The position numbers and the translations under genes were made by a program. This document shows positions 1,607 to 11,347 of a stretch of 64,000 bases of DNA, piece after piece. Below the pieces are notes generated by a model, which saw only the letters and a program-made list of their open reading frames with translations, was not told the origin of the DNA and searched no databases. Numbering within the stretch: the first letter of the stretch is position 1; the number at the start of each line of letters is the position of its first letter. The stretch lies in assembly GCF_056712565.1 (NCBI RefSeq), contig NZ_CM160072.1. One strand, 5' to 3'.

Positions 1607-4036
1607 TTATGCCTGAACAGCTGGCTGATCAAACGCCGTTAACTTCGGCGCATTGCCCGTATATTTTTCGATATACACCAGCGCAGTGTTACCGGCACAG
1701 GCATTCGCCAGCTGCGAGCTGGGGATATCCGCCGTTAACACGTTCGCACTACCGTTTTTACACAAGCCATTTTCCAGATCTAGCCATGCACCTTCATGCA
1801 CGCATACCACGCCTTTTTTGATCCCGTCAGTCACCACCGCGCCTGTCAGAATCTGACCGCGCTTGTTCCAGACACGCACCAGATCGCCATTCGCAATACC
1901 AAAGCGAGCAGCATCTTCGGTGTGAATAGTGATTGGTTCACGATCGGCAACCGCATATTTTTTACGCAGTTCCGCATAGTTAAGCTGACTGTGTAAACGG
2001 TGTGCCGGATGTGCGGTCAGAAGCTGCAACTGCTTCTCGTCGGCGGTACCCTTCCACTCATCAGGCGCAAGCCAGGTTGGGTGTGCCGGGCAATCCTTAT
2101 AGCCAAATTTTTCCAGCGTTCTGGAGTAAATCTCAATTTTGCCGCTTGGTGTACCCAGCGCATTTTTCACCGGATCGGCGCGGAAATCACCATAACGAAT
2201 GTACTGTTCGTTCTTCTCGCTGCGGCGCATTTCGATCAGTTTATTTTGCTGCCAGAAGGCATTAAACATTGGCATCGTCACGCGTTGCGCACGCGCACCT
2301 TTCTGAGCGGCATCATAGAAAAATTTCAGCCACGCCATTTCATCTTTACCTTCGGTATAGATCTCTTTTCCGCCAGGTTTGAGTAATTCAGCAAGATCGG
2401 CAAACACGTCAAAATCGTTGCGCGCTTCAAATTGCGGAGCGACAGCCTGCTTCATCGGCACAATATGCTGGTTGCTGTAATCACCGGTCATCGTCAGGTC
2501 ATTGCGCTCAAACGATGTGGTGATCGGTAATACGATATCTGCATGTTTAGCAGCTGCGGTCCAGTAGCATTCAGAAACGACGATCATCTCCGGTTTCTGC
2601 CATGCTTTAATCAGACGATTAGTATCCTGGTGATGGGTAAAGTTACCGCCACCCGCCCACCAGATCATTTTGATATTCGGATACGTTTGTTCTTTACCGT
2701 TATGCTGATATTTGCCGCCAGGATTTTCCAGCGCATCGACGATACGGGCAACAGGAATCGCCGTAATTCCGCCATCATCAGCGGCCTCGCTGGCCTGTCC
2801 GGCAATCGCCGCAGACATTTCTGGTAGCACTCCGCCAACACGCGTCGGGTTGCCACCGTTGGAGTAATGATAAGAGAAACCAAACCCGCCGCCCGGTGTA
2901 CCAATCTGCCCTAACATCGCCGCCAGCGTCACCAGCATCCAGTGTTTCTGTTCACCATATTGCTGGCGCTGAATTCCCCAGCCTGCCATCAGCATTGTGC
3001 GATTTGCCGCCATCAGTTCAGCGAGTTTGACTATCTGCGCTTCCGGTACGCCAGTAATTTCCGCCGCCCAGGCCGCGCTCTTCGGCGTATTATCGCTCTT
3101 ACCTGTCAGATACTCTTCAAACTGCGGATACCCGGTAGTGTATTTTTCAAGGAACACTTTATCGTGTTTGCCTTGTGTCATCAGGGTATGCGCAATCCCT
3201 AACATCAGTGCCACATCGGTGCCCATATTCGGTGCGATCCAGGTGGCATTATCGCCAAAGAATTCGATGGTTTCGGAGCAGATAGGATCAATGGCAATCA
3301 CTGGTTTGCCAGATTTTTTCAGCTGATGGAAGTATTCCAGCCCTTGCTCATCGGTACTGCTCCAGGCAATTTTGAGCGTGTTCAGCGGGTTCATCCCCCA
3401 CAGCACCACCACCTGGCTGTTTTCCAGAATAAGCGGCCAGGAGGTCTGCTGTTCATACACCTCTACAGAACCGACCACATGCGGCATGATCACCTGTGCC
3501 GCTCCGGTTGAATAATCGCCGCTATGCCCGGAATAACCGCCCGCCAGGTTCATATAACGTTGCAGTAAGGTTTGCGCTTTATGCAACACGCCAGAAGAAC
3601 GCCAGCCGTAAGATCCGGCAAAAATGGCCGATGGTCCGTTAGCTTTACGAATACGATCGTGTTGTTCATGAATCAGTTTTAATGCTTGTTCCCAGCTCAC
3701 CTGTACATAGGTATCTTCGCCACGACCTTTCGCCGGTTGCAGTGGATTATCGAGATAGCTTTTTCTCACCATCGGATGCTGAATACGCGCCGTGGTGTGT
3801 ACCTGATCCGCCGCCGTAGACTGTAAGGAGTTCGGTATGGTTTTCGCCAGCGCGCCTGTCGAAGAAACAATCTTGCCGTCCTTCACTTCTACGTTCATCG
3901 CTCCCCAACGGCCCGCAGTGAGAATTTTGCCGCCCTTCTCTTCTGCCCATGCGGGTAGCGGTGCAGCCGATGTCACCACCAGCGTCCCTGCCGCAATACC
4001 GCTATGTTTAATAAATTCACGTCTTGTTAATGTCAT
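1607..4036 (-). CDS. torZ: Trimethylamine-N-oxide reductase 2 catalytic subunit TorZ (molybdopterin, Tat signal)
   Basis: ORF 1607..4054; start set at the Met preceding the twin-arginine motif ([10 protein letters not shown]) with a GGAGG 8 nt upstream, giving 809 aa. Confidence 0.85.
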
Positions 4037-4060
4037 AACTTCCTCCCTGATCAACGAGGA

Positions 4061-5161
4061 TCACTGTTTCTCGGTAATATCTTTGGCGTTGTACTGGAAG
4101 TACCGCGTCAAAATGTCCAGTTCGTTTTCGCTCATGCTGGTTCGCGCCCCCATTCCTTTGGCAATGGACGGCCATGCATTGACGGTGTAATGGTCGGCGG
4201 CAATAGGGGCATGGCAGCCAGCGCAATAGGTATCGTCAAGTTTTTCAGCGTATTGCCATAGCGGTTTACGGTCCGCTAATGCGGGATCGATAAGCGACCC
4301 CTGCAAAGACGCCTGACGCCATTGATTGCCGTATTCGTCAGCCTGCCATTCCCCGTTTACCGTTAGCGCCTTGATACCTTCTTCACTTAATGTGGCGAGC
4401 GCCAGCCGTTGACCTGCCGCCAGGTAGAGCGTGTTTTCACTGCCCTGCATTTGATAACCCTGCAACCGAACAATTGGCTGTTTACCACTGACATCAACGA
4501 CGGTAAGATCGGTACCAGGAGTCACGGTAGCCAGGTCGCCTATGCGAGAAGTTTTGAAAGGATAAATATGTGCGCCATTAGTAACTGAAGTAGCGGCCTG
4601 ACTTTCCAGCTCATGCGCCGCGTTGTCATCCATTTTTATTTCTGGCGGAAAATGGGCAATGCCTTTATGGCAATCGATACAGGTTTCGCCGTCCTTTTGC
4701 GCTTTATTATGCATTTTTTGCGCAGATTCACTTTGCGAGGCAATATCCATGGCATCAAAAGAATGGCAACTACGGCAGGTTGCAGAGTCAGTTGCTTTTA
4801 ATTCTTTCCATACTGTTTCGGCCATTTCCTGGCGATGAGCTTCGAACTTATCGTCACTGTCTATTTTGCCGCTAACAAATTCATGATAAATATCTTTAGA
4901 TGCTTTTAATTTAGCAAATAAATAATCCATCCCTGACTTTGGAATATGGCAATCAGCACATTCCGCACGTATCCCTTTCTGGTTTGAAAAGTGGACAGTT
5001 CCCTGATATTCCTCAAAAGGTTTACTCATCGAGTGGCAGGAAAGGCAAAATGCGGTATCCGACGTTTTATGTAAGGCTTTTTGCGCCAGCAATAACCCGC
5101 CGCCACCAACCACAACCGCTATCAGCAAAAACAATAACCCAATGCGTTTTTTCCCTCGCAT
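4061..5161 (-). CDS. torY: Pentahaem c-type cytochrome TorY (NapC/NirT family)
   Basis: 366 aa, N-terminal membrane anchor, several CxxCH haem-binding motifs; immediately upstream of torZ on the same strand. Confidence 0.85.
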
Positions 5162-5469
5162 AGATTCCTCTAATTAAATTCCAGGACACCGATACCATTG
5201 TATAAATAAATACACAACGAATTGACTACTTGCTTAATTCGGCACAACACTGCCTGAAATAATCGATAAAGAATATGATTTATTACAATGTAATCATTAA
5301 TTGCTAAGAAATAACCCAGTTGTTATTTAGAATATATATTTGTCAGTTTTGGCAATTTAAATCACATAATGAATGTGAATATATAAAATATTTTTAGCAC
5401 AACGCTATGCGCACTGTCACCCGCTCAACAGATCACGGCAATCGTTCGTTTTTTATACTGCTCAGGGAT

Positions 5470-5503
5470 AAAAAAAGGCCCCTGTTGAAATTGCAGGGGC
5501 CTG
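5470..5503 (-). terminator. Rho-independent terminator downstream of cutC
   Basis: aggcccctg...caggggcct hairpin with an A-run on the plus strand (U-run on the minus-strand transcript). Confidence 0.6.
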
Positions 5504-7090: not shown

Positions 7091-8824
7091 GTGAATATTC
7101 AGGCTCTTCTCTCAGAAAAAGTCCGTCAGGCCATGATTGCGGCAGGCGCGCCTGCGGATTGCGAACCGCAGGTTCGTCAGTCAGCAAAAGTTCAGTTCGG
7201 CAACTATCAGGCTAACGGCATGATGGCAGTTGCTAAAAAACTGGGTATGGCACCGCGACAATTAGCAGAGCAGGTGCTGACTCATCTGGATCTTAACGGT
7301 ATCGCCAGCAAAGTTGAGATCGCCGGTCCAGGCTTTATCAACATTTTCCTTGATCCGGCATTCCTGGCTGAACATGTTCAGCAGGCGCTGGCGTCCGATC
7401 GTCTCGGTGTTGCTATGCCAGAAAAACAAACCATTGTGGTTGACTACTCTGCGCCAAACGTGGCGAAAGAGATGCATGTCGGTCACCTGCGCTCTACCAT
7501 TATTGGTGACGCAGCAGTGCGTACTCTGGAGTTCCTCGGTCACAAAGTGATTCGCGCAAACCACGTCGGCGACTGGGGCACTCAGTTCGGTATGCTGATT
7601 GCATGGCTGGAAAAGCAGCAGCAAGAAAACGCCGGTGAAATGGAGCTGGCTGACCTTGAAGGTTTCTACCGCGATGCGAAAAAGCATTACGACGAGGATG
7701 AAGAGTTTGCCGAGCGTGCACGTAACTACGTGGTAAAACTGCAAAGCGGTGACGAATATTTCCGCGAGATGTGGCGCAAACTGGTCGACATCACCATGAC
7801 GCAGAACCAGATCACCTACGATCGTCTGAACGTGACGTTGACCCGCGATGACGTCATGGGTGAAAGTCTCTACAACCCAATGCTGCCGGGTATCGTGGCG
7901 GACCTGAAAGCCAAAGGTCTGGCAGTAGAAAGTGAAGGCGCGACCGTTGTATTCCTTGATGAGTTCAAAAACAAGGAAGGCGAACCGATGGGCGTTATCA
8001 TTCAGAAGAAAGATGGCGGCTATCTCTACACCACCACTGATATCGCCTGTGCGAAATATCGTTATGAAACACTGCATGCCGATCGCGTGCTGTATTACAT
8101 CGACTCCCGTCAGCATCAACACCTGATGCAGGCGTGGGCTATCGTCCGCAAAGCAGGCTATGTACCGGAATCCGTACCGCTGGAACACCACATGTTCGGC
8201 ATGATGCTGGGTAAAGACGGCAAACCGTTCAAAACCCGCGCGGGTGGTACAGTGAAACTGGCCGATCTGCTGGATGAAGCCCTGGAGCGTGCACGCCGTC
8301 TGGTGGCAGAAAAGAACCCGGATATGCCAGCCGACGAGCTGGAAAAACTGGCTAACGCGGTTGGTATTGGTGCGGTGAAATATGCGGATCTCTCCAAAAA
8401 CCGCACCACGGACTACATCTTCGACTGGGACAACATGCTGGCGTTTGAGGGTAATACCGCGCCATACATGCAGTATGCTTACACGCGTGTATTATCCGTG
8501 TTCCGTAAAGCAGAAATTGACGAAGAGCAACTGGCTGCAGCTCCGGTAATCATCCGTGAAGATCGTGAAGCGCAACTGGCAGCTCGCCTGCTGCAGTTTG
8601 AAGAAACCCTCACTGTGGTTGCCCGTGAAGGCACGCCGCATGTGATGTGTGCTTACCTGTACGATCTGGCCGGTCTGTTCTCTGGCTTCTACGAGCACTG
8701 CCCGATCCTCAGCGCAGAAAACGAAGAAGTGCGTAACAGCCGTCTGAAACTGGCACAACTGACGGCGAAGACGCTGAAGCTGGGTCTGGATACGCTGGGT
8801 ATTGAGACAGTAGAGCGTATGTAA
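7091..8824 (+). CDS. argS: Arginine--tRNA ligase
   Basis: 577 aa with class I aaRS HIGH-type motif (HVGH) and recognisable ArgRS sequence throughout; GTG start per ORF track. Confidence 0.95.
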
Positions 8825-8841
8825 TCGCGTTATACGGCAAC

Positions 8842-8872
8842 AGCCGATGTCATTGCAGACATCGGCTTTTTT
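8842..8872 (+). terminator. Rho-independent terminator after argS
   Basis: agccgatgtc-attgca-gacatcggct followed by TTTTTT; sits in the 52-bp gap to flhE. Confidence 0.7.
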
Positions 8873-8876
8873 ATCA

Positions 8877-9269
8877 TTAACGATAATTTACAATCACTTC
8901 ATTCCGTTGAATCTTTAGCGGCGGAATTAACCGCCCACCGCCAGGCACTTCCCAGATAAAGCGCAACGGTTCTGCCGCCGGTATACCGGAAAAGGCCATG
9001 GTGGTTCCACTCTGCCCCTCTAATTCGACACAACGAGATTGTGAACACAAGCGAACCCGCAGTCCTGCAGGTGTCGGACCGATAAGCTGATAACGCCACG
9101 CCACCAGCGTCATCAATCCTGAAGCAGGTTGTCGCGTAGAAAGAGGCGCTGACGACATCGATTCACCGCGATGATTTAGCGTAACGCCCACGCTACTCGC
9201 CTGCCACATCCCCTCCCCGGCGGCTTGCACCAGCAGCGGAAACAATAATATTGCTAATAAGGCTCTCAT
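8877..9269 (-). CDS. flhE: Flagellar protein FlhE
   Basis: 130 aa with signal peptide; last gene of the flhBAE operon. Confidence 0.85.
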   Translation of the reverse strand: MRALLAILLFPLLVQAAGEGMWQASSVGVTLNHRGESMSSAPLSTRQPASGLMTLVAWRYQLIGPTPAGLRVRLCSQSRCVELEGQSGTTMAFSGIPAAEPLRFIWEVPGGGRLIPPLKIQRNEVIVNYR

Positions 9270-11347
9270 TATTTGCCGCCAATCGTCGCCGTCATACGGA
9301 TATGTCGGTTATCTGATAGTTCCAGATTCGACAGCACCACTAACTGCGGCAAGCTGCGGCGCAGGAAGCGAGACAATAATGGTCGCAGCGCGTGGTTCAC
9401 CAACAATACCGGCGGCGCACCCAACATCTCCTGACGGGATAGCGCTTCCTGAGTTTGCGCCAACAAGCGATCCGCCAGCCCTGGCTCCAGTCCCCCCCCG
9501 CCCTGCAATGCCTGTAGCAACAAACGTTCCAGCGGTGTATCGAGGCCAATAACATGGACTTCATCTTTGCCAGGAAACCACTGCTGGGTAATCGCCCGTC
9601 CCAACGCCACGCGCACGACGGCGGTTAATTCATGTGGATCGCTCTGAATGGGCGCATGTTCCGCCAGCGTTTCGAGAATGGTGCGCATATCGCGAATCGG
9701 CACTTTTTCATCGAGCAGATTTTGCAGCACTTTATGCAGTGTGGTAAGCGTGACGACGCCAGGAACGAGATCTTCCGTCAGCTTTGGCATCTCCTGGGCG
9801 ACGCGATCCAGCAGCTGTTGCGCCTCCTGACGACCAAACAGCTCTGCGGCATGCTGGCTAATGAGGTGGTTAAGATGCGTTGCCACCACCGTGCTGGCCT
9901 CAACCACGGTGTACCCCTGAATCTGCGCCTGTTCTTTAAGCGCACTTTCAATCCAGATAGCATTCAGGCCAAATGCCGGATCGACGGTCGCCTCACCAGG
10001 TAACGTCCCGGCAGCGGTTCCAGGGTTAATCGCCAACCAACGCCCCGGATAAGCATCACCACTGCCTATCTCCACGCCTTTCATCAAAATGCGATAGCGG
10101 GCAGGTTGCAGATCCATATTGTCGCGAATGTGCACCACTGGCGGCAGAAACCCCATCTCCTGGGCAAATTTCTTGCGGATACTGCGTATACGGCCCAACA
10201 ACTCACCATCCTGCTGGAAATCGACCATCGGGATCAGTCGATAACCCACTTCCATTCCCAGAGAATCTTCCAGTTGTACATCGTTCCACGTCGCTTCGAC
10301 AACGGTATTATTCTCTGCCATTTTTACCGGTTTTGGTTCGGCAGGCGCTTTTTGTTCACGTCCGCGGATCCACCAGGCCAGTCCCAGCAATCCGGCAGTG
10401 AACAGCAAAAATACCAGGTTCGGCATTCCAGGCACCAGGCCGAGTAAACCGAGCACGGCGGCGCTTAATAACATAACGCTTGGGTTACTGAAAAGCTGAT
10501 TCACCATCTGCTCGCCAACATCCTGATCGGTGCTGACACGTGTAACGATGACGCCCGCGGCGGTAGAAATCACCAGTGCCGGGATTTGTGCCACCAGACC
10601 GTCGCCAATGGTCAATAGCGTATAACTTTCCGCCGCGTGCCCCATGCTCATGCCATGTTGCAGCACACCGACCAGCAATCCGCCGACAACGTTAATGACC
10701 ATGATGAGGATCCCGGCGATGGCATCGCCGCGAACAAACTTACTTGCCCCGTCCATCGAGCCGTAAAAATCGGCTTCCTGAGTCACTTCGGAGCGGCGTT
10801 TTTTCGCTTCATCTTCACCAATCAATCCAGCGTTAAGGTCGGCGTCAATCGCCATCTGCTTACCCGGCATACCATCGAGAACAAAGCGCGCGCCCACTTC
10901 CGCAATACGCCCGGCACCTTTGGTGATAACCATAAAGTTGATGATCACGAGAATGACGAACACCACGATACCGATAGCGAAATTGCCACCAACGAGGAAG
11001 TGACCGAACGCTTCGACCACCTTTCCAGCCGCCGCCGCGCCGGTATGCCCTTCCATCAAAATGATACGGGTTGAAGCCACGTTAAGTGCCAGACGCAACA
11101 GCGTGGTAAACAACAGGATGGTCGGAAACGCAGCAAACTCAAGCGTGCGCTGGGTAAACATCGCCACCAGCAACACCATGATCGACAAGGCAATATTGAA
11201 GGTAAACAGCAGGTCGAGTATGAATGCGGGCAGTGGCAGTACCATCATCGACAAGATCAACAGGATCAAAATCGGTCCGGCAAGGATCTGCCATTGTGTC
11301 GATTTCAGGTTTGCAGGCAGGCGCAGCATCGCGGCCAGATTACTCAT
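9269..11347 (-). CDS. flhA: Flagellar type III export apparatus protein FlhA
   Basis: ORF 9269..11422; start set at the internal Met (MSNLAAMLRL...) giving 692 aa and the usual 8-bp overlap with flhB. Confidence 0.9.
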   Translation of the reverse strand: MSNLAAMLRLPANLKSTQWQILAGPILILLILSMMVLPLPAFILDLLFTFNIALSIMVLLVAMFTQRTLEFAAFPTILLFTTLLRLALNVASTRIILMEGHTGAAAAGKVVEAFGHFLVGGNFAIGIVVFVILVIINFMVITKGAGRIAEVGARFVLDGMPGKQMAIDADLNAGLIGEDEAKKRRSEVTQEADFYGSMDGASKFVRGDAIAGILIMVINVVGGLLVGVLQHGMSMGHAAESYTLLTIGDGLVAQIPALVISTAAGVIVTRVSTDQDVGEQMVNQLFSNPSVMLLSAAVLGLLGLVPGMPNLVFLLFTAGLLGLAWWIRGREQKAPAEPKPVKMAENNTVVEATWNDVQLEDSLGMEVGYRLIPMVDFQQDGELLGRIRSIRKKFAQEMGFLPPVVHIRDNMDLQPARYRILMKGVEIGSGDAYPGRWLAINPGTAAGTLPGEATVDPAFGLNAIWIESALKEQAQIQGYTVVEASTVVATHLNHLISQHAAELFGRQEAQQLLDRVAQEMPKLTEDLVPGVVTLTTLHKVLQNLLDEKVPIRDMRTILETLAEHAPIQSDPHELTAVVRVALGRAITQQWFPGKDEVHVIGLDTPLERLLLQALQGGGGLEPGLADRLLAQTQEALSRQEMLGAPPVLLVNHALRPLLSRFLRRSLPQLVVLSNLELSDNRHIRMTATIGGK

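Follow-up and report, generated by a model that had tools for sequence, protein, structure and literature searches.

Within the window, meaning the whole 64,000-nucleotide stretch of DNA analysed here, argS and flhE are convergent neighbours, with argS ending at 8824 and the 3' end of flhE at 8877. Gene order and orientation are as in K-12 (cutC, yecM, argS > < flhE, flhA, flhB). The features of the junction are as follows:

7091-8824, + strand: argS (arginine--tRNA ligase), 577 aa; an ORF with stop codon TAA at 8822-8824, annotated as argS in identical public genomes
8825-8876, no strand: argS-flhE spacer of 52 bp, the short yecT-less allele; delimited by the ORF bounds, K-12 counterpart 784 bp
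8828-8876, no strand: allele-specific segment of 49 bp, defined by pairwise alignment with K-12
8842-8867, + strand: hairpin of the putative argS intrinsic terminator, from terminator scan and fold
8868-8873, + strand: T6 tract of the terminator, from sequence and terminator scan
8877-9269, - strand: flhE (flagellar protein FlhE), 130 aa, last gene of flhBAE; an ORF matching Pfam FlhE at 3.7e-41

The ORF coordinates place the gap between the two genes at exactly 8825-8876, the 52 bp given in the original prediction, which had also described this gap as holding a terminator hairpin and nothing else. This was borne out, as the hairpin at 8842-8867 and its T6 tract were the sole feature detected and both yecV and yecT were missing. 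A tblastn search with YecT over the whole 64-kb window identified no yecT/LprI (PF07007) gene (best E = 4). Compared with K-12, argS of the window showed 99% protein and 97.9% DNA identity, and flhE (94.1% DNA identity) was more diverged than either argS or flhA (97.3% DNA identity).

The hairpin consists of the stem AGCCGATGTC / GACATCGGCT closed by the loop ATTGCA and followed by TTTTTT; the terminator scan assigned it a stem of 10 bp with 6 G-C pairs and a loop of 6 nt. Its predicted + strand fold (-19.4 kcal/mol, z = -4.4) was more stable than those of all shuffled sequences (0/200 as stable). Since the hairpin starts only 17 nt past the argS stop codon, its natural reading is a predicted intrinsic (Rho-independent) terminator of argS, and the G+C-rich 10-bp stem, 6-nt loop and U6 tail after a stop codon are likewise those of Rho-independent terminators. 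Such a terminator would end argS transcription before it could run antisense into flhE. The stem was kept in the short alleles of another E. coli (L061), of E. albertii (L005) and of L002, a further Escherichia species representative labelled E. coli, with variation in the loop. The hairpin occurs as a single copy in the window, allowing for up to 3 mismatches; with this one copy, and with no Rfam family scoring above threshold, a repeated palindrome of the REP/BIME type was ruled out. An Rfam match to isrA inside argS reached 18 bits, short of the gathering score of 51, and was taken as chance.

The position of the hairpin between convergent genes, together with an equally good fold of the minus strand (-21.8 kcal/mol, z = -4.9), raises the alternative that it acts as a bidirectional terminator serving both argS and the flhBAE operon. 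We consider this unlikely, as the minus-strand stem runs into GUUGCCGUAU instead of a U-tract and the scan called a terminator on the + strand only. Bidirectional intrinsic terminators also differ from the present hairpin in having an A-tract 5' of the stem; here the + strand 5' flank reads CGGCAAC and the missing A-tract indicates that the hairpin is not of the bidirectional type. A role in ending flhBAE transcripts is thus possible but not supported.

The absence of yecT had been predicted on the premise that this gene lies between argS and flhE in K-12. The MG1655 annotation shows this placement to be correct and puts yecV there too. The K-12 interval (b1876-b1878) has an argS-flhE gap of 784 bp containing yecV (b4778; 45 nt, 14 codons, - strand) and yecT (b1877; 489 nt, + strand). 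When the two intervals were aligned, as the original prediction had proposed, 49 bp in the window (8828-8876) corresponded to 781 bp in K-12 (3800-4580 of the K-12 locus), a net difference of 732 bp. On the argS side, homology to K-12 extends as far as TAATCG (8827); on the flhE side it begins again with the stop codon of flhE, which reads TTA in the window and TCA in K-12. This difference is a segment replacement and not a clean deletion, with the whole spacer differing, including the argS terminator: that of K-12 is another hairpin (AAGCCTGATC..GATCAGGCTT followed by T6). Whereas the K-12 spacer contains two terminators in addition to yecV and yecT, the window spacer contains one different terminator, whose hairpin was absent from the long allele.

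The borders of the long allele showed no target-site duplication and no terminal repeats, such as a mobile-element or genomic-islet insertion would leave, nor does the short allele provide a clean empty site. When the 52-bp spacer was compared with the 784 bp of K-12, the top-scoring local alignment matched 14/15 bases over the T-tract of the K-12 argS terminator and was reached by 0-9/300 shuffles against K-12 and by 0-62/300 over three long alleles. By eye, the right half of the short hairpin resembles the yecT terminator (ATTGCA..GACATCG.GC.TTTTT), but the scored local alignment chose the argS T-tract instead. An exact 11-bp direct repeat, GATAATTCACA, was observed in K-12 at the yecT stop and the flhE stop (4457-4467 and 4586-4596 of the same locus). 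Its copies are 129 bp apart and do not lie at the two borders, and the repeat could be due to chance, with ~0.1 such repeats expected in 831 bp.

We then determined how widely each state occurs among 5,426 complete E. coli genomes, the survey that had been suggested alongside the prediction. The short junction, scored where at least 80% of a 120-bp probe matched in one piece, was found in 1,782/5,426 genomes, and yecT DNA in 3,638/5,426, near full length in 3,561. No yecT DNA was found anywhere in the remaining 1,788. Genomes with the short junction and yecT carriers together accounted for 5,420/5,426, leaving six in neither group. Carriers of the long allele included K-12, a B-strain derivative, ETEC H10407, O157:H7, O55:H7, O26:H11 and O111:H8. 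Positions 8300-9400 of the window were 100% identical to ATCC 11775 and BEN2908, and the 120-bp junction was 100% identical in UTI89; all three are phylogroup B2 strains. The short allele was not limited to such backgrounds, as ~900 of the genomes carrying it were not B2-like. Its flank haplotypes were 95.6-100% identical to one another (differing by up to ~4%), which places the short allele in several deep lineages. The short allele of L061 differed from the window by two SNPs, both outside the stem.

These counts bear directly on the simplest explanation for the 732 bp missing relative to K-12, namely a recent, lineage-private deletion of yecT in the strain from which the window comes, or an artefact of assembly or cloning. 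Recurrence of the same junction among 1,782 complete genomes whose flanks belong to several diverged haplotypes, and again in E. albertii and L002, leaves this explanation with a negligible probability, as does a spacer that is not a sub-sequence of the K-12 spacer. We therefore rejected it on the population counts and the other species. Confinement of the short junction to one recent clone is likewise contradicted by the genome counts, the E. albertii and L002 loci and the flank haplotypes.

The analysis was extended beyond E. coli by scanning species-representative genomes for FlhE, which yielded 59 loci. This set included no locus from E. fergusonii or from the E. coli representative, and none labelled E. 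marmotae or E. ruysiae, so the allele tree at genus level is incomplete. The short allele, with a spacer of ~52 bp, was present in E. albertii and in L002, whose FlhE is 93% identical. Both spacers contained the stem GCCGATGTC/GACATCGGC, a T-tract and the left flank TC(G/A)CGTTAT as in the window, and on the basis of these common elements we regard them as the same allele. The long allele with yecT was present in Escherichia sp. E1V33 (L003) and E. whittamii (L004), with YecT proteins of 96-97% identity. The yecT region of K-12 was 94.2% identical to that of E1V33 and 92.9% identical to that of E. whittamii, compared to 90-94% for argS, flhE and flhA between the same genomes. The yecT region is therefore about as diverged as its flanks, which dates the long allele to roughly the time when those species separated. 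Both alleles are thus old and cross species boundaries in Escherichia. A further observation concerns FlhE itself, whose C-terminus extends one residue further in E. albertii and L002 (..NYRQ*); in the window a TAA stop takes the place of this Gln codon (..NYR*).

Taken together, these data make it very probable that Escherichia has a common, old argS-flhE polymorphism with two states and that the window carries the short one, in which argS and flhE are parted only by a predicted Rho-independent terminator. In the alternative state, the long allele of K-12 and approximately two thirds of E. coli, argS is followed by another terminator and then by an AT-rich 0.7-kb segment with yecV and yecT. 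The small presence/absence difference proposed in the original prediction is accordingly right, with the qualification that the state is not special to the window genome and that yecT is absent only in comparison with K-12.

Outside Escherichia, the same interval carried other genes. In Salmonella, Citrobacter, Enterobacter, Leclercia and others, 2-3.9 kb of unrelated cargo was located at argS-flhE, and none of the 55 loci outside Escherichia had a YecT homologue at this position. The argS-flhE interval is a hot spot of gene turnover. In Salmonella diarizonae (L007, 5848-7719) the interval contained a GH88 hydrolase and a PBP2-like protein, and in Citrobacter sedlakii (L011, 4612-7339) an MFS_2 transporter and a GH88 hydrolase.

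As to the direction of change, we lean slightly, at about even odds, towards a short allele that was derived through deletion or replacement. Under the alternative, to which we assign a lower probability of roughly one in three, the short allele would represent the original empty site, and the K-12 state would have arisen when a foreign yecV-yecT cassette entered downstream of argS. The yecT segment has 39% GC versus 53-55% in its flanks, which suggests acquisition, and yecT is influenced by H-NS/StpA, like other acquired loci: the gene is under activation by BglJ-RcsB and partial repression by H-NS/StpA, its expression rising moderately without the latter (PMC3950696). Insertion is also consistent with the short allele in E. 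albertii and L002, the most distant Escherichia found, with the lack of a YecT homologue at the locus in the 55 loci of other genera, and with the closest non-Escherichia YecT homologues, which lie in T6SS clusters and are also of ~38% GC. Against it, the argS terminator of Salmonella and Citrobacter is orthologous to that of the long allele and not to that of the short allele. The K-12 argS terminator aligned over its entire hairpin and tail with those of Salmonella diarizonae and several Citrobacter (33/41 columns, score 36, z = 12.7 for K-12 versus S. diarizonae), whereas the short allele had in common with any outgroup only the generic GGCTTTTTTAT (score <= 24). Neither a target-site duplication nor a clean insertion junction is present, the short hairpin has no counterpart in the long allele, and species differ as much in the long allele as in its flanks, which means that any insertion has to be an ancient one.

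The retention of an ancestral-type argS terminator in the long allele alone is instead what would be expected if the short allele arose from a longer ancestor, whether yecT-bearing or with other cargo, by a deletion or replacement that removed the ancestral terminator and left or created a new one. This we regard as having an even chance of being correct. The varying cargo of 2-3.9 kb in other genera (MFS_2 and GH88; PBP2-like in Salmonella) fits such an ancestor, and implies that cargo must have been lost within Escherichia. The window and K-12 differ more on the flhE side of the junction (4-8.7% to ~9550 versus ~2-3% beyond), but flhE is faster-evolving between species too, so this raised divergence is weak evidence for deep coalescence. 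Derivation from a longer ancestor is further weakened by the lack of a reconstructable deletion junction, the best match of 14/15 bases being marginal against shuffled sequences. A source for the short hairpin was also sought in flhE-proximal DNA of other genera; the only candidate was a partial match in Buttiauxella (L042; score 29, z = 8.2), which was judged insufficient.

Divergence from K-12 was uneven along the flanks. Across flhE and into the flhA 3' end (8877-9550) it started at 8.7% over the 150 bp nearest the junction, was 4-6.7% from there to ~9550 and then dropped to ~2-3%. Within argS, a patch at 7804-8028 showed 7-10% divergence compared to ~1% elsewhere in the gene, which suggests a small recombination tract. 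On the torY-cutC side, where micL is located in K-12, positions 5104-5478 showed 6-9% compared to 1-2% in neighbouring stretches.

The polymorphism is an ordinary accessory-gene polymorphism that is already known, and the short state is annotated in identical public genomes: ATCC 11775, BEN2908 and UTI89 have argS annotated directly before flhE and show no difference from the window. Among the papers searched, none linked yecT with phylogroups or with argS/flhE. yecT is among the numerous accessory genes distinguishing K-12 from B2 strains, and K-12 is not the reference state at argS-flhE, with about one third of E. coli genomes having neither yecT nor yecV. The argS 3' end and its terminator are allele-dependent, which matters when 3' UTRs or small proteins such as YecV are mapped across strains.

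Variation in yecT was also observed among genomes that carry the long allele or its remnants. In E. coli NT1F31 (NZ_CP045190.1, 3702-5624 of the extracted locus), yecT is interrupted by an IS1A element and the sequence from the 3' part of the gene up to uspC has been lost: an IS1-associated deletion took out the entire flh-che-mot-flhDC region and has one of its ends in yecT. The gene contains an A7 run (~4222-4228 of the K-12 locus), and in two K-12-like contigs (L066 and L067) products of 108-110 aa result from a frameshift or small deletion in or near it. Many truncated Shigella flexneri forms of YecT were found in the protein database. Two 83-85%-identical YecT proteins (P0025 and P0027) were considered as coming from another species; this was rejected, as they come from K-12-like E. 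coli whose yecT has such a frameshift or small deletion in or near the A7 run.

Finally, we examined what the gene missing from the window might encode. K-12 YecT matched Pfam LprI at 1.1e-17 (LprI/DUF1311 family) and has a visible N-terminal signal sequence; a sequence search of the PDB gave no meaningful match. The protein search recovered near-identical E. coli and Shigella proteins, plus a set of ~60%-identical proteins. Both ~60%-identical homologues that were inspected, from Logan runs SRR32613782 (L063) and SRR28282887 (L064), lay inside T6SS clusters. In one (L064, 2183-5808), the gene order was VgrG, a 761-aa Pesticin-domain protein at 2183-4465, a 124-aa LprI protein, the 161-aa YecT homologue and PAAR, giving two LprI genes in tandem; the Pesticin domain is phage-lysozyme-like. 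In the other (L063, 1-5818), the YecT homologue was downstream of a CHAP-domain protein, with four small genes between, and directly before PAAR, and TssM-like (IcmF-related) and TssA-like (ImpA_N/VasJ) genes followed further downstream. Both homologues had ~38% GC in contigs of 50-55% GC. Such positions in T6SS clusters are where immunity genes normally occur.

From the gene context of these homologues we tentatively propose, as an unlikely reading, that yecT may be an orphan T6SS immunity gene directed against a lysozyme-/pesticin-like effector of other enterobacteria, its presence or absence being an ancient cross-species polymorphism. If so, yecT-less strains such as the B2 genome analysed here would be selectively sensitive to that effector. 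This reading of the missing gene could be tested at little cost. Precedents are reported within the family: DUF1311 proteins adjoin lysozyme-like or WHIX effectors (PMC12135965), and Etsi4 of EHEC, an LprI/DUF1311 T6SS immunity protein, rescues the toxicity of Etse4 (PMC12981562). YecT belongs to the same LprI/DUF1311 family as immunity proteins of the Etsi4 type, yet is only 21% identical to Etsi4, and whereas T6SS immunity genes adjoin their effectors, E. coli yecT stands between argS and flhE with no adjacent effector or T6SS genes.
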